Shown piece by piece: positions 10,044-16,088 of a DNA stretch of 36,349 nucleotides. The first letter of the stretch is position 1, and each line of letters opens with the position of its first letter. The notes below the pieces were generated by a model, which did no database searches, was not told where the DNA came from, and saw nothing but the letters and a program-made list of their open reading frames with translations. A program made the position numbers and the translations under genes. Source of the stretch: a virus (lineage: Duplodnaviria; Heunggongvirae; Uroviricota; Caudoviricetes); IMG/VR virus record IMGVR_UViG_2718217867_000002, positions 1-36,349 of that record, one strand, 5' to 3'.

Positions 10044-10119
10044 GGCCCTTTAGCTCAGTGGTGAGAGCGAGCGACTCATAATCGCCAGGTCGCTGGTTCA
10101 AATCCAGCAAGGGCCACCA
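10044..10119 (+). tRNA. tRNA with CAT anticodon, Ile2-like (ileX/ileZ-type); could be called Met from the anticodon alone
   Basis: 76 nt; acceptor GGCCCTT/AAGGGCC; anticodon loop ACTCATAAT; TTCAAATCC T-arm; CCA encoded; resembles E. coli ileX. Confidence 0.8.
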
Positions 10120-10120
10120 G

Positions 10121-10197
10121 CCGCCACTAGCTCATCAGGAAAGAGCGTCAACCCTTTAAGTTGAGTGTACGAGGTTCGAGTCCCCGGTGGCGGTCCA
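10121..10197 (+). tRNA. tRNA-like gene of uncertain isotype (anticodon loop CCTTTAA, reads as UUU/Lys but with C at position 33 and an A-C mismatch in the T-stem); possible pseudo-tRNA
   Basis: Acceptor CCGCCAC/GTGGCGG with CCA; D-arm TAGCTCATCAGGAAAGAGC; T-loop TTCGAGT. The cloverleaf folds by hand but has non-canonical features. Confidence 0.45.
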
Positions 10198-10199
10198 GT

Positions 10200-10275
<76 letters not shown>

Positions 10276-10278
10276 TAT

Positions 10279-10353
<75 letters not shown>

Positions 10354-10645: not shown

Positions 10646-10861
10646 ATGAAATCCATGGACAAAATTTCAACGGGCATTGCCTACGGCACCTCCGCAGGCA
10701 GTGCTGGCTACTGGTTTTTACAGTGGCTTGATCAGGTCAGTCCGTCACAGTGGGCTGCGATTGGTGTACTGGGGAGTCTGGTTCTGGGCTTCCTGACTTA
10801 TCTGACAAATCTGTACTTCAAAATCAGAGAAGACAAGCGTAAGGCTGCACGGGGAGAGTAA
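10646..10861 (+). CDS. Class II holin / pinholin (S21/EssQ-like), dual-start motif MKSMDK
   Basis: 71 aa, two TMDs, charged C-terminus; closely resembles phage 21 S; GGAGGTGAGG RBS. Confidence 0.9.
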
Positions 10862-10865
10862 TTCA

Positions 10866-11180
10866 ATGACTCAAAACTATGAACTGATTGTGAAAGGGAT
10901 CCGCAATTTTGAGAATAAAGTTACGGTAACTTTAGCGTTACGGGACAAAAAACGCTTTGACGGTGAAATTTTTGGCTTGGACATCTCGCTGGACCGTGTT
11001 GAAGGTGCCGCGCTGGAGTTTTATGAGGCAGCAGCCAGAAGGAGCATCAGACAGGTCTTCCTGGATGTTGCTGCCGGGTTATGTGAAGGGGACGAGCTGT
11101 TGCCAGAAACGCGCCCCTGTTCAGAGGCGCGGTATACCATAAAAATTAACAGTTCTGATAACTCGATTACAGGTTGTTAG
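10866..11180 (+). CDS. Lysis-cassette protein of unknown function (YdfR/DUF1327-like)
   Basis: 104-aa ORF between holin and endolysin, as ydfR sits between essQ and rrrQ in Qin. Confidence 0.55.
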   Translation: MTQNYELIVKGIRNFENKVTVTLALRDKKRFDGEIFGLDISLDRVEGAALEFYEAAARRSIRQVFLDVAAGLCEGDELLPETRPCSEARYTIKINSSDNSITGC

Positions 11181-11235: not shown

Positions 11236-11769
11236 ATGAGCGCAAAAATCAAATACGGCCTGTCAGCTGCTGTTCTGGCGCTGATTGCTGCAGGCGCGTC
11301 TGCTCCTCAAATACTTGACCAGTTTCTGGATGAAAAAGAGGGTAACCACACTACGGCATACCGCGATGGTTCCGGTATATGGACCATCTGTCGTGGTGCC
11401 ACAATGGTGGATGGTAAGCCCGTCATACCGGGAATGAAGCTGTCGAAGGAAAAATGCGACCAGGTTAACGCTATTGAACGTGATAAGGCGCTGGCATGGG
11501 TGGAGCGCAATATTAAAGTACCACTGACCGAACCACAGAAAGCGGGTATAGCGTCATTCTGTCCCTATAACATTGGCCCCGGTAAGTGTTTCCCGTCGAC
11601 GTTTTATAAGCGGCTGAATGCCGGTGATCGTAAGGGCGCATGCGAGGCGATTCGCTGGTGGATAAAAGATGGTGGGCGCGATTGCCGCATACGTTCAAAT
11701 AACTGCTATGGACAGGTTATTCGTCGTGACCAGGAAAGCGCATTAGCCTGTTGGGGGATAGATCAGTGA
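11236..11769 (+). CDS. Endolysin, GH24-type lysozyme with N-terminal signal-anchor-release-like segment (RrrQ-like)
   Basis: 177 aa; Gly/Ala-rich N-terminal segment; E-x8-D-x5-T catalytic spacing ([25 protein letters not shown]). Confidence 0.9.
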
Positions 11770-12233
11770 GCAGAGTCGCAGCGATTATTTATACTCTGGT
11801 TATCTGCACCATCGTCTGCCTGTCGTGGGCGGTCAATCATTACCGTGATAACGCCATCGCCTACAAAGAACAGCGTGATAAAAAAGTCAGTGAGCTGAAG
11901 CAGGCGACTGCCACCATCGCTGACATGCAACAGCGTCAGCGTGATGTTGCTGCGCTCGATGCAAAGTACTCGAGAGAATTAGCCAATGCGAAAGCTGAAA
12001 ATGAAACTCTGCGCGCTGATGTTGCCGCTGGTCGTAAGCGCCTGCGGGTCAATGCCAGTTGCTCCGCAGCCGTGCGTGAAGCCACCGGCCCCACCAGCGT
12101 GGATAATGCAACCAGCCCCCGACTGGCAGACACCGCTGAACGGGATTATTTCACCCTCAGAGAACGGTTGATGACGATGCAGAAGCAACTGGAAGGGGCA
12201 CAGCTATACATTCGTGAGCAATGTCTCAGATAA
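11766..12233 (+). CDS. Rz-like inner-membrane spanin (i-spanin)
   Basis: GTG overlapping the endolysin stop (the ORF track starts at the TTG at 11751); N-terminal TMD, coiled-coil, embedded Rz1. Confidence 0.75.
11986..12171 (+). CDS. Rz1-like outer-membrane lipoprotein spanin, embedded in Rz in the +1 frame
   Basis: 61 aa; lipobox LVVSAC; proline-rich; close to lambda Rz1 ([23 protein letters not shown]). Confidence 0.75.
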
Positions 12234-12411
12234 AAAACGGCCAAGGATAATCCGCTAAAGATTCGCCGGTGGCGAAAGAGAGCCAAGGTGTCAACCTACG
12301 CTATTACTTATGATAATGCAACAGACGAAGCGGGACATTCAGGTGCATAACAAAGCGTGGCAGGTGAACTGCAAACCTGAAAAGGCGCAAAAATCTGCGC
12401 CAGAATGGTAG

Positions 12412-12897
12412 TTATTTTGTGGTTTTGAAAAGTTTCATGTACTGATTGATAGGTTTTCCTGAGTAAGAATCTGTCCCTGGCTCAGGAGTATCAGATAAAA
12501 CTTTTGCAGCTAATTTGTTGGAGGCTTGATTACCAACCCCGACAATAGCCTCTACATAGAATTCATTGAAGGAATTTCTAAATCCGTATTGCATTTCTTC
12601 AATGCTGGCGATGAGAAGTTGAGTACCGATGCCTTGCGCTTTATATTCATCGGCTACTGCATAGCCAACGCCAAAGCATGGTTTACCTTCAACAAACTCT
12701 GCAGGGACATATATAGCAACACCTTTAACATTTTCTCCTTCAAAGAATGCATAAGTAAACCGTGGTGTACCCTCTGCATCATCCAAAAGCACCTTCATAT
12801 TTGGGTGAACTATGCATGGTGAAGGCTTAATCAGACCATTAGAAAAGGCGTATTGAAAACTAATTAATGAGTCTGTTGGATCAACGAGTTCTGGCAT
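12412..12897 (-). CDS. GNAT-family N-acetyltransferase, antisense to the phage late genes (moron)
   Basis: 161 aa; motif AQGIGTQLLIASIEEM fits the GNAT acetyl-CoA-binding motif A; AT-rich flanks; hairpin GGCGCA-aaaatc-TGCGCC near 12376-12395 downstream on the minus strand. Confidence 0.7.
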   Translation of the reverse strand: MPELVDPTDSLISFQYAFSNGLIKPSPCIVHPNMKVLLDDAEGTPRFTYAFFEGENVKGVAIYVPAEFVEGKPCFGVGYAVADEYKAQGIGTQLLIASIEEMQYGFRNSFNEFYVEAIVGVGNQASNKLAAKVLSDTPEPGTDSYSGKPINQYMKLFKTTK

Positions 12898-13141
12898 TTT
12901 GAGTCCTATGTATTTTGATATAAGCGATTCAACATACTACTTTCTTACGTTTAATTCTTTAACATTAACGAGCCAGGATACGAAATTTTGAAAAAGAGTA
13001 AAGTTTTTAATAATTCATTCAAAGCATATCGCATGTGCACATCTAAGAAAGGCTTTCAGCTGTGAGCCTGGGTAAACCGTAAACTTTCGGCGACTCTGCC
13101 GTGCGACAGGTTCACGTCTAACATGTCTAAAAGGAAGAGTT

Positions 13142-13342
13142 ATGAAGTTTCAGGTCGCTAAACTGTATCGTGGTAAACATTTCGCAGGGTATGGGATTGC
13201 AGTTGATGGTGAGTTACTGGAAGGGCAGCTTTCCGCCAGGACAGAGTCACGCGGAGGCGAGCCACCAACAGTCACTGTGACTTTCAGACTGACAGCAGAA
13301 CATATCGAGAATCAGCCCGTCATTCAACTGAACAGGGGGTGA
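13142..13342 (+). CDS. Hypothetical small protein (66 aa)
   Basis: ORF with AAAGGAAGAG RBS; immediately upstream of the HNH gene. Confidence 0.4.
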   Translation: MKFQVAKLYRGKHFAGYGIAVDGELLEGQLSARTESRGGEPPTVTVTFRLTAEHIENQPVIQLNRG

Positions 13343-13349
13343 GGTATTT

Positions 13350-13700
13350 ATGCCATCACGAATCCCACGCGCCTGCCGTAAGCGTGGATGTGCAGGTACA
13401 ACCACAGACAGTTCTGGTTACTGCGATAAACATCGTGGCGAAGGATGGGTACAGCATCAACGCGGACTGAGCCGCCACCAGCGTGGCTATGGCTCGAAAT
13501 GGGATGCCATACGTGCGCGCATACTGAAGCGTGATAATCATCTGTGTCAGAACTGCCTGCGCAATGGGAGAGCCGTTGAAGCCAGAACTGTGGACCACAT
13601 CATTCCGAAAGCTCATGGTGGCACGGATGCAGACAGTAACCTGCAGAGTCTGTGCTGGCCCTGTCATAAAGCAAAAACAGCGCGCGAACGCATCAATTGA
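13350..13700 (+). CDS. HNH endonuclease (terminase-associated)
   Basis: 116 aa; CxxC...HIIPKAHGGTDADSNLQSLCWPCHKAK is a canonical HNH motif; sits just before terS. Confidence 0.85.
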   Translation: MPSRIPRACRKRGCAGTTTDSSGYCDKHRGEGWVQHQRGLSRHQRGYGSKWDAIRARILKRDNHLCQNCLRNGRAVEARTVDHIIPKAHGGTDADSNLQSLCWPCHKAKTARERIN

Positions 13701-13848
13701 TAACAGTTCCCATCTGTAGGGGAGGGGCGGGTCAAATCTCTGCAACCCTGGCTGCTCAGTACCGCCGCCTGACCCTTCCTCACATCGCCGCAGGTTCGAA
13801 AACTTTTTTTTGGAAATGTGAACAAACGATTGATAGGTAAGACCGATT

Positions 13849-14331
13849 ATGTCAGGACCTCCGAAAACCCCGCCACGCCTGCATTTGATTCGAGGCAACC
13901 CCTCAAAACGTCCCGTTAAAGACCACAAAAAAACCGCTAAAAAGGATGAAAAAGGTCTTCCTAAAATTCCGCAGCATTTAGGGGCTCAGGGGAAGTACTG
14001 GTTCAGGCGAATGGCGGAAGAGCTGAATGCGGAAGGGATCATTTCTCAGCTTGATGCGCGTGCGCTCGAGTTGCTGGTGGAAGCCTACACCGAATATCGG
14101 CATCACTGCGAAACACTCGATGTTGAGGGGTATACCTACCGCACGGAAACGCAGAGCGGTGATGTACTGATTAAGGCGCACCCCGCGGCGGCAATGAAAG
14201 CGGATGCCTGGAAGCGGATCCGGGCAATGCTTGCAGAGTTTGGTATGTCACCGGCAAGCCGGGCTAAAGTAAATATCGCCGGACCGGATGATGTTGATCC
14301 GCTGGCGGAGCTTTTAAAAGCGAGAGACTGA
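13849..14331 (+). CDS. Terminase small subunit (P27-family-like)
   Basis: 160 aa; immediately precedes and overlaps the large terminase start (TGATG). Confidence 0.8.
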   Translation: MSGPPKTPPRLHLIRGNPSKRPVKDHKKTAKKDEKGLPKIPQHLGAQGKYWFRRMAEELNAEGIISQLDARALELLVEAYTEYRHHCETLDVEGYTYRTETQSGDVLIKAHPAAAMKADAWKRIRAMLAEFGMSPASRAKVNIAGPDDVDPLAELLKARD

Positions 14332-16088
14332 TGGCAAAAGTGGCTGACGGGATCCGCTACGCCGAACGTGTTGTTGCAGGAGAAATTGTTGCTGGCGAAT
14401 TTGTCCGCCTGGCCTGCCAGCGTTTTCTTGATGATCTGAAGTACGGCGAAGAGCGGGGGATTTATTTCAGTGAACCCCGTGCGCAGCACATCCTGAATTT
14501 CTACAAATTTGTGCCTCATGTAAAAGGGGCGCTGGCAGGCCAGCCCATTGAGTTGATGGACTGGCATGTATTTATCCTCATTAATATTTTTGGTTTTGTC
14601 ATTCCGCTGGTCAATGAAGAGACCGGGGAAGTTGTCATGCGCAGCGATGGCAGCGGACGTCCGGTGATGGTGCGCCGGTTCCGGACGGCGTACAACGAAG
14701 TCGCCCGTAAAAACGCAAAATCAACCCTGTCATCAGGTATCGGTCTGTATATGACGGGGGCAGATGGTGAAGGCGGGGCTGAGGTGTATTCAGCCGCAAC
14801 CACGCGTGACCAGGCCAGAATCGTGTTTGAAGACGCCAAAAATATGGTCAGAAAAGCCCGATCGACACTCGGGCGGTTGTTTGATTTCAACAAGCTGGCG
14901 ATTTACCAGGAGCAGAGCGCATCAAAATTTGAACCGCTTTCCTCGGATGCAAACAACCTGGATGGTCTGAACATCCACTGCGCCATTATTGATGAGCTGC
15001 ATGCACATAAAACCCGCGACGTGTGGGACGTTCTGGAAACGGCAACTGGTGCCCGTCTGCAGTCCCTTTTATTTGGTATCACCACGGCAGGGTTTAACAA
15101 GGAAGGGATTTGTTACGAGCAGCGTGATTACGCCATCAAGGTATTGCGTGGCTATAACAGCGACGTGGAGGGCGCGGTAAAAGACGACTCCTACTTTGCG
15201 ATTATTTACACCCTCGATGAGGGAGATGATCCGTTTGATGAAACGGTCTGGCAGAAAGCGAATCCCGGCCTGGGCATCTGTAAACGCTGGGATGATCTGC
15301 GTCGCCTGGCGAAAAAAGCGAAAGAACAGGTCTCTGCGCGGGTGAATTTTTTTACCAAACACATGAATGTGTGGGTAACAGCAGAGTCTGCCTGGATGGA
15401 CATGATTAAGTGGGAGAAGTGCGAATACATTGCCCCACGACATGAGCTGAAAACGTATCCCATGTGGGTCGGCGTTGACCTTGCTCATAAGATTGATATC
15501 TGTGCGGCGGCAAAACTCTGGCGAACGGATAACGGGCATGTTCATGCCGATTTTAAATTCTGGCTTCCGGAAGGACGGCTGGAACGATGCTCGCGGCAGC
15601 AGGCAGAACTTTACCGGAAGTGGGCGGAGATGGATAAGCTGATTCTGACGGATGGTGATGTTATCGATCATGCTCAGATAAAAAGTGACTTACTGGAATG
15701 GATTGGTGGTGAAAACCTCAGGGAACTGGGATTTGACCCGTGGAGCGCGATGCAGTTCAGCCTGGCACTGGCTGAAGAAGGGATACCGCTGGTGGAGGTT
15801 CCGCAGACGGTTCGCAATCTGTCAGAGGCCATGAAGGAAACGGAATCACTGGTCTATGCCGGGCGTTTCCATCACAGCAATCATCCGGTCATGAACTGGA
15901 TGATGTCTAACGTTACGGTAAAACCGGACAAAAACGACAATATCTTCCCGAATAAATCCACGCTGGAAGCCAAAATCGACGGCCCTGTTGCGATGTTTAC
16001 AGCAATGAGCCGGATGCTGGTCAATGGTGGTGAACCGGAGCTGGATCTGTCTGAACATCTGGTCAGCGTGGGCATCCGCTCGCTTTAA
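14331..16088 (+). CDS. Terminase large subunit
   Basis: 585 aa; ATPase region followed by a nuclease region; conserved position. Confidence 0.95.

Follow-up and report, generated by a model that had tools for sequence, protein, structure and literature searches.

An antisense GNAT acetyltransferase gene as cargo between the lysis and packaging genes of a lambdoid prophage

The window analysed here is the whole of the 36,349-nucleotide (nt) IMG/VR record IMGVR_UViG_2718217867_000002, a lambdoid prophage of Escherichia coli. Between its lysis genes and its packaging genes lies a gene for a GNAT N-acetyltransferase (table 1), the only minus-strand gene in the neighbourhood that runs from lysis to portal; the surrounding genes are all on the plus strand. 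Its composition also sets it apart. The GC content of the gene is 39.7% and that of its third codon positions (GC3) 30.2%, against 51–54% and 48–57% for its neighbours, and it occupies a trough of 38–42% GC in a window of 51.0%. The first-pass annotation of this DNA, made from the letters alone, had described an antisense cargo gene in an AT-rich block amid plus-strand late genes, between the lysis and packaging modules. Orientation and low GC are both as described, and the position holds here and in 27–28 of 29 viral contigs. RefSeq labels the near-identical protein WP_001114684.1 ‘GNAT family N-acetyltransferase’; a literature search found no mention of WP_001114684 or of an equivalent prophage GNAT.

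Is this open reading frame (ORF) a gene at all? When it is compared with orthologues from Dryocola and two Enterobacter species, the ratio of nonsynonymous to synonymous substitution rates (dN/dS) is 0.09–0.13 at dS 0.37–1.25. An antisense artefact, which the first-pass annotation had named as fatal to its own reading, is therefore ruled out. Judged from these substitution rates, the gene is real and under purifying selection. The least credible of all the explanations we weighed is that the ORF is non-functional or a decaying remnant. It could draw on the want of a recognisable promoter, on the lack of an isolated phage carrier and on the gene remnants in the flanks. Against it stand not only the dN/dS but also full-length conservation over about 590 clusters (at 50% identity) with invariant cofactor-site residues, a conserved Shine–Dalgarno sequence and terminator hairpin, and 62 intact E. 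coli copies at least 99.5% identical. As far as sequence can show, it is refuted.

Table 1. Features of the GNAT locus, with copies of the leader element in other contigs. Positions refer to the window unless another contig is named.
Feature	Position	Strand	Remarks
Four tRNA genes	10044–10353	+	between Q antiterminator region and holin
Holin	10646–10861	+	
DUF1327	10866–11180	+	
Lysozyme	11236–11769	+	
Rz	11751–12233	+	
Rz1	11986–12171	+	embedded within Rz
Lipoprotein remnant	12310–12411	+	33-codon C-terminal remnant of small lysis-module lipoprotein; convergent with GNAT
Transferable GNAT cassette	12322–13121	−	800 bp, blastn block: gene, 3′ hairpin, AT-rich 5′ region, adjoining leader
Intrinsic-terminator-like hairpin and U-run	12380–12401	−	11 nt past stop codon
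GNAT N-acetyltransferase coding sequence	12412–12897	−	161 residues; near-identical to RefSeq WP_001114684.1
Shine–Dalgarno AGGA	12904–12907	−	6 nt ahead of ATG; read from sequence
Candidate −10 element TATGTT	12931–12936	−	weak, no recognisable −35; about 33 nt upstream of ATG
Conserved late-sense non-coding leader, about 94 nt	13028–13121	+	right edge of cassette; not GNAT-specific
orf66	13142–13342	+	66 codons; just upstream of HNH; no family match
HNH endonuclease	13350–13700	+	
Small terminase TerS	13849–14331	+	P27-type
Large terminase TerL	14331–16088	+	portal next, also +
Leader copy, L037 (phi80)	2501–2594		
Leader copy, L038 (HK639)	2501–2594		
Leader copy, L039 (FSL SP-016)	2501–2594		
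Leader copy, L009	about 5775–5870	−	

What does the gene encode? The protein matches the Pfam model Acetyltransf_1 (PF00583) at 27.4 bits, above the gathering cut-off of 20.7 (E = 4.4e-6). An AlphaFold model built from 37 homologues (predicted local distance difference test 91.9, predicted template-modelling score 0.87) has the mixed β-sheet with the β4–α3–β5–α4 core of the GNAT fold. The N-terminal lobe of the model departs from the usual pattern: ahead of α3 a single helix leads into four consecutive strands. Because of this layout the template-modelling (TM) scores reach only about 0.5. The pyrophosphate-binding motif A, Q/R-x-x-G-x-G/A after β4, is present as K86-A-Q-G89-I-G91. Profile, model and motif together uphold the assignment to the GNAT fold.

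The conserved positions tell a consistent story. Among 167 family members, position 86 is occupied mostly by R (87%), with K in 11 members and Q in 10, and G89 is 99% conserved. R46 and N123 never vary in alignments of 150–167 members (27–99% identical to the query); conservation is 95–99% at D39, G89, S126, A80, A117 and E116; and motif A, E116, N123 and S126 are kept in at least 95%. E116 aligns with Glu127 of SsArd1. The tyrosine usual in α4, part of a ...Y..GF motif, is missing from the window protein, which is acidic, with an isoelectric point (pI) of 4.8 (family median 5.9). Since the cofactor site is intact, we take the protein to be, in all likelihood, an active acetyl-CoA-dependent N-acetyltransferase. 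In such an enzyme acetyl-CoA would be held by the β4–α3 loop (K/R86-x-x-G89-x-G/A91) and by N123 and S126 at the start of α4, E116 on β5 would be the likely general base, and the family-specific D39, R46, Y49, Y79, D143, S146 and Y153 would line the pocket for the acceptor.

How large is the family, and where does it live? A profile search of 1.84 billion representative proteins returned 593 at E ≤ 1e-3, of which 452 at E ≤ 1e-10, nearly all of about 160 residues and matched over their full length. By sequence they form a compact, well-separated, uncharacterised subfamily of the GNAT superfamily. Members are carried on 34 plasmids, 17 of them conjugative, of Pseudomonas, Agrobacterium, Aeromonas and others, often inside extended runs of small hypothetical genes and close to Pycsar, TIR or toxin–antitoxin (TA) genes. 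A member on a plasmid or island of P. syringae has an integrase, ParA, SRAP and CsrA as neighbours. Chromosomal members, with heterogeneous neighbours, occur in Acidobacteria and in alpha- and beta-proteobacteria.

If the protein is an acetyltransferase, could it be a toxin that has lost its antitoxin? The orphan-toxin explanation would have it acetylate aminoacyl-tRNA, as the AtaT/TacT/ItaT/KacT type does, and arrest translation, for example in abortive infection. We consider this very improbable. The first-pass annotation had seen no antitoxin-sized partner upstream, and there is none: no minus-strand ORF of 30 codons or more lies between the GNAT gene and orf66, and 12898–13141 holds only unconserved ORFs of 22–29 codons. 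An all-against-all BLASTP of ORFs of at least 60 residues within 4 kb of 31 loci found no conserved neighbour protein, ribbon–helix–helix (RHH), DUF1778 or other, on either side, and returned only shadow ORFs inside the GNAT gene. The plus-strand orf66 was tried as a divergent partner and rejected; it belongs to the backbone, occurs in 97 E. coli genomes, of which 35 lack the GNAT gene, and is absent from other cassette variants. (In phages vB_EcoM-606R7 and Evi it is reduced to a 28-nt scar.) The family profile meets AtaT (6gts, 6ajn) only at E = 0.86–0.98, with no stretch passing alone, some 4,000-fold worse than its match to the N-terminal acetyltransferases (Nat enzymes; E = 2e-4). The α4 tyrosine is missing, and a solitary gene has been stably kept under strong purifying selection. 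Toxins that bind tRNA are basic, so the acidity of the present protein would also speak against a toxin. All of this agrees with the earlier view that the gene is not half of a classical GNAT–RHH pair.

What, then, might be acetylated? The best matches of the family profile are to protein N-terminal acetyltransferases and are marginal: SsArd1 at 2e-4, Naa10 at 4e-3, RimL and Naa30 each at 5e-3 and RimI at 0.02. They are followed by MccE (0.15), EctA (0.33) and a metagenomic aminoglycoside acetyltransferase (AAC; 0.99). The first-pass annotation had held that the substrate could not be told from sequence and had proposed profile searches against GNAT toxins and AACs; these gave no specific similarity to either, and no curated NCBIfam model, AAC resistance included, comes near its cut-off. 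What does appear, far below threshold, is EctA, RimL, AAC(6′) group E, RimI and RimJ only. The RimL model PRK10151 is hit by 10 of 37 members, at best with E = 6e-4 and far below cut-off. AAC models give no match to the window protein at E ≤ 1 and at best E = 0.013–0.17 among the 37 members. Acetyltransf_3 (PF13302) scores 17.8 bits with the window protein, below its gathering cut-off of 25.4, and is a precomputed Pfam match for several family members. A RimL alignment sought through a PDB search with family member P0022 was abandoned, the search giving only spurious Rad52 matches. The protein is thus neither a known AAC nor, to judge from these profiles, a member of any other curated family. 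The acidic charge, the conserved D39, E101, E116 and D143 and the invariant R46 suggest a free-amine acceptor rather than a nucleic acid. As the probable acceptor we favour either the N-terminus of a protein or peptide or else a small metabolite, amino-acid-like or cationic; the two options are not separable from sequence.

A rival explanation is detoxification of a small molecule, in which the enzyme would N-acetylate a toxic amine and make the lysogen resistant. The toxin might be an aminoglycoside, an aminoacyl-nucleotide such as processed microcin C, or an amino-acid antimetabolite such as phosphinothricin or methionine sulfoximine (MSX). The weak matches to EctA (15 of 37 members), RimL and AAC(6′) group E (5 of 37) point this way, as does the record of Acetyltransf_3, the RimL/RimJ/MccE family, in several members. 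The N-x-x-S of N123 and S126, together with the acidic residues and R46, would fit a cationic or zwitterionic ligand, and soil Pseudomonas, Agrobacterium and Acidobacteria often carry homologues. On the other hand, Acetyltransf_3 and every NCBIfam model, curated AAC families included, stay below cut-off, and the N-terminal acetyltransferases score better than MccE, EctA or the metagenomic AAC. Functional antibiotic-resistance genes are, moreover, reportedly rare in phages (bioRxiv 10.1101/2021.05.20.444921). We regard detoxification as unlikely.

We now turn to the DNA around the gene. By blastn the cassette of table 1 aligns without a break to a stretch in prophages of Dryocola (86%), Enterobacter mori (75%) and E. 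hormaechei (77%); outside that stretch the flanks are unrelated. The first-pass annotation had placed the gene and its AT-rich block at 12234–13141. The transferable unit has the narrower bounds of the blastn match, and the right-hand 95 nt or so of that unit are a separate plus-strand leader that is found also in phages lacking the GNAT gene. The stretch 12374–13141 is present in 62 of 5,426 complete E. coli genomes, at 99.5% identity or more and always chromosomal and single-copy; all 62 copies are intact. Two induced phages, vB_EcoM-606R7 and Evi, share the backbone of the prophage at 97% identity but have the slot empty: HNH follows Rz after 42 nt in vB_EcoM-606R7 and almost directly in Evi. 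The slot is occupied by bor, antisense, in vB_EcoS-640R1, and by two other ORFs in vB_EcoS-611R1. The GNAT gene is thus cargo, as had been proposed, and polymorphic for presence and absence. With this polymorphism, a distinct base composition and its own terminator, it has several properties of a moron.

From where did the cassette come? Homology to the induced relatives ends at 12203–12373 on the left and returns at 13333–13350 on the right. The lipoprotein remnant at the left edge contains the GNAT terminator hairpin, and its stop codon abuts that of the GNAT gene. Its sequence, MIMQQTKRDIQVHNKAWQVNCKPEKAQKSAPEW, matches the end (...KDILAHNKAWQANCNLKKAQ) of a 74-residue lipoprotein that adjoins the GNAT gene in Enterobacter prophages (L009 6503–6727). 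Because the left recombination joint lies inside this remnant, the donor was probably an Enterobacter-type phage.

The same arrangement recurs elsewhere. In 27–28 of the 29 IMG/VR loci the GNAT gene lies between the lysis genes and HNH/terminase, and always on the strand opposite to them; these loci cover two types of lysis cassette and two types of TerL that are only 35% identical. Prophages of Enterobacter and Leclercia carry it antisense between a GH19 endolysin/spanin cassette and HNH–TerS–TerL, those of Yersinia antisense between TerS and TerL. In many related prophages (IMG/VR L059, L062, L065, L066, L068) late-sense cargo stands between the GNAT gene and HNH, behind the 94-nt leader. 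Among this cargo are a 485-residue protein (MQVTIDGV...), the counterpart of which in phage FSL SP-016 bears a glycosyltransferase annotation, and a protein of about 195–217 residues. Since the slot that holds the GNAT gene also houses such late-sense cargo, it is a multi-cargo hotspot.

How might the gene be expressed? At the place equivalent to its Shine–Dalgarno sequence the orthologues carry AGGA, GAGG or GAGA. Past the stop codon a 7-bp GC-rich hairpin (minus strand, 12384–12401; GGCGCAG-AUUU-UUGCGCC) is followed by UUUU at 12380–12383, and the 40 nt from 12372 to 12411 fold with −13 kcal/mol (z = −4.1), a stability equalled by none of 200 shuffles. A strict terminator scanner skips the hairpin because it requires five U and finds four. 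A matching hairpin with 4–6 U and a different loop stands 3′ of the orthologue in five further types of prophage, Yersinia among them (L016, L017, L009, L006, L013). The terminator-like hairpin credited to the gene from the start is thus real and conserved. As for a promoter, the best candidate is the weak −10 element of table 1; at the same alignment position four orthologous cassettes have TAT-N-N-T (TATGTT, TATTCT, TATTTT and TATTTT). A relaxed scan gave 8/12 matches elsewhere at best, none of them convincing or conserved.

We propose that the cassette is a moron whose product, a catalytically competent stand-alone GNAT, acetylates an amine to the benefit of the lysogen, and we hold this whole reading to be fairly probable. 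A foreign, AT-rich and self-contained transcription unit would have been inserted into the variable slot that separates Rz/Rz1 from the HNH–terminase genes. Its orientation against the late operon would let it be expressed from the repressed prophage; late transcription would oppose that of the GNAT gene. The product would belong to a discrete subfamily of stand-alone N-acetyltransferases that moves on prophages, plasmids and genomic islands, and its acetylation of an acceptor would alter some property of the host cell in the lysogen's favour. The class of substrate, the benefit, the catalytic parts played by single residues and expression in the lysogen are inferred.

Several observations weigh against this proposal. 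No homologue is encoded in any of 50,697 deposited phage genomes, so the gene is known only from prophages. Upstream of it the minus strand has no sigma-70 promoter match of 9/12 or better; since no convincing promoter was found, autonomous expression in the lysogen is suggested by the layout alone. The similarity to N-terminal acetyltransferases is marginal and, because it covers mostly the cofactor core (residues 77–130), says little about the acceptor. Finally, there are the sub-threshold matches to small-molecule enzymes set out above (EctA, AAC(6′) and MccE).

Might the benefit lie in conflict between mobile elements? The enzyme could act on an incoming phage by acetylating one of its proteins, which would give superinfection exclusion or single-gene defence, or it could acetylate a host immune protein in counter-defence, in the manner of AcrVA5 with Cas12a. 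This is a specific version of the moron proposal, not its opposite, and as such possible, if doubtful. The family is found almost only on mobile elements: moron slots, the 34 plasmids, and islands with integrase, ParA, SRAP and TA genes. On Pseudomonas plasmids it stands in long one-directional arrays of small hypothetical genes adjoining Pycsar; on Agrobacterium pAt2 its neighbours are a TIR protein, an AAA ATPase and an S8 peptidase. Of the 135 neighbours counted around distant homologues, three are reverse transcriptases, one of them Drt3a (E = 2.8e-120). A solitary GNAT integron cassette, Brc113, found by phage-resistance screening, is reported to be phage-protective (bioRxiv 10.1101/2024.07.02.601719). 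Yet no PADLOC model matches (PADLOC-DB v2 gave 0 families at E ≤ 1 for the window protein), and Brc113 is a conventional GNAT with a ...LY..GF motif, outside the present family. The defence-gene neighbours are anecdotal: they lack a background rate, and the mobile-element setting is a confounder. Many distant homologues sit amid ordinary metabolic and regulatory genes. Still broader, and about as doubtful, is the idea that the family of about 590 clusters as a whole is an unrecognised single-gene conflict enzyme, always on in the prophage slot and carried among small plasmid accessory genes. By acetylating one specific protein, of a rival phage or of host immunity, it would give exclusion or counter-defence through one covalent mark.

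One metagenomic protein has been counted in favour of a conflict role. In contig SRR30787003_439299 (L044 1444–4740) a 1,098-residue protein joins an Mrr nuclease, an nSTAND1 nucleoside triphosphatase (NTPase) and a C-terminal GNAT domain of this family, next to a SIR2_2 gene. It was rejected as a link to defence, being a singleton: the GNAT domain is absent from over 900 homologues of the NTPase, which are about 910 residues long, and the closest of them has no GNAT gene alongside. The fusion is possibly a read-through of two adjacent genes.

The leader at the right edge of the cassette has a distribution of its own. It is 85–91% identical in phi80, HK639, mEp213/043/237/390, Salmonella FSL SP-016 and Aeromonas AsXd-1, and occurs in 213 of the 5,426 E. 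coli genomes. It always ends about 13 nt ahead of a plus-strand, late-sense ORF, the identity of which varies: orf66 here, an N15 gp59-like gene in phi80 and SP-016, the 485-residue glycosyltransferase-like protein, and proteins of 210–310 residues elsewhere. (orf66 was considered as a remnant of the gp59-like gene behind the phi80 leader and rejected, there being no similarity.) RNAalifold on 16 distinct copies gave, for the plus strand, a small GCGC hairpin together with a long helix that has interruptions and at the base of which UCUUU-AG pairs with CU-AAA-GG, the Shine–Dalgarno region of the downstream gene. In this fold 95.4% of cells are paired and five pairs are changed on both sides, a result reached by none of 500 shuffles; its many G·U pairs would become A·C mismatches on the opposite strand. 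The pairing is seen only in this comparative analysis, single-sequence z-scores being −0.3 and +0.9, and since copy diversity is low the structure is suggestive only. Rfam gave no match at E ≤ 1 over 12100–13900. A coding role was rejected, because the 22-codon minus-strand ORF is interrupted in the Enterobacter copy. The element resembles a portable translational leader that serves late-sense cargo genes, and is perhaps also a recombination joint for cassette exchange.

Two further observations concern the window at large. The tRNA cluster comprises a gene with a CAT anticodon (Met according to ARAGORN, Ile according to RefSeq), Lys-TTT, Thr-TGT and Gly-TCC. The early, regulatory part (1–7440) is mosaic relative to the best-matching genome, that of strain G12; only 7441–28821 is colinear with it, at 95–97% identity, and the annotation of that record is therefore not transferable to the left 7 kb.

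Why should such a gene matter? Morons of the Rz–terminase slot are lambdoid prophage genes that change the phenotype of the host, and bor is the textbook case. The present subfamily is confined almost entirely to prophages, plasmids and islands, and its carriers include Enterobacteriaceae as well as Pseudomonas, Agrobacterium and Acidobacteria. A small, portable unit of 800 bp, the cassette occurs in clinical (ST131), avian and porcine E. coli. Its role could be lysogen benefit, phage exclusion, counter-defence or detoxification; the mobile-element carriage and occasional, anecdotal defence neighbours (Pycsar, TIR, Drt3a, SIR2/STAND) hint at conflict. A single function, once found, would annotate several hundred protein clusters at once. 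For phage biologists a RefSeq-annotated GNAT in a known moron slot will be no surprise, and the interest is modest unless a phenotype emerges.

How does the gene compare with known systems? The archaeal Ard1/SsNat, Naa10, Naa30, RimL, RimJ and RimI share 10–20% identity with it, and at most the cofactor core (about residues 45–144) aligns. The N-terminal lobe of the N-terminal acetyltransferases is laid out differently, and the family falls far below the cut-offs of the rimI, PRK10151 and PRK10809 models. As to the GNATs that detoxify small molecules (the C-terminal domain of MccE, the AACs and the phosphinothricin/MSX acetyltransferases), the family reaches no model threshold, and no counterpart was identified in them for D39, R46, Y49, D143 or S146. 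AtaT, TacT, ItaT and KacT are likewise small GNATs on mobile elements, but the present protein has no antitoxin, no specific similarity to them and no α4 tyrosine, and is acidic. AcrVA5 is a GNAT anti-CRISPR that acetylates Cas12a. It, likened here by description only, and Brc113, rejected as a member of the family on account of its motif, resemble the present case as one-gene GNATs of mobile elements that act without a partner. Among the closest parallels is bor, the lambdoid moron just downstream of Rz. The bor product is an outer-membrane lipoprotein, whereas that of the GNAT gene is predicted to be a soluble cytoplasmic enzyme; the promoter of bor and its expression in lysogens are documented, while the GNAT gene has a weak candidate −10 only. 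In other respects the two agree: both occupy the slot between Rz/Rz1 and the packaging genes in the same antisense orientation, and both are single genes of foreign composition, polymorphic between close relatives, with their own terminator. We conclude that the locus is an object of an ordinary kind, a moron in the bor slot that carries an uncharacterised enzyme.

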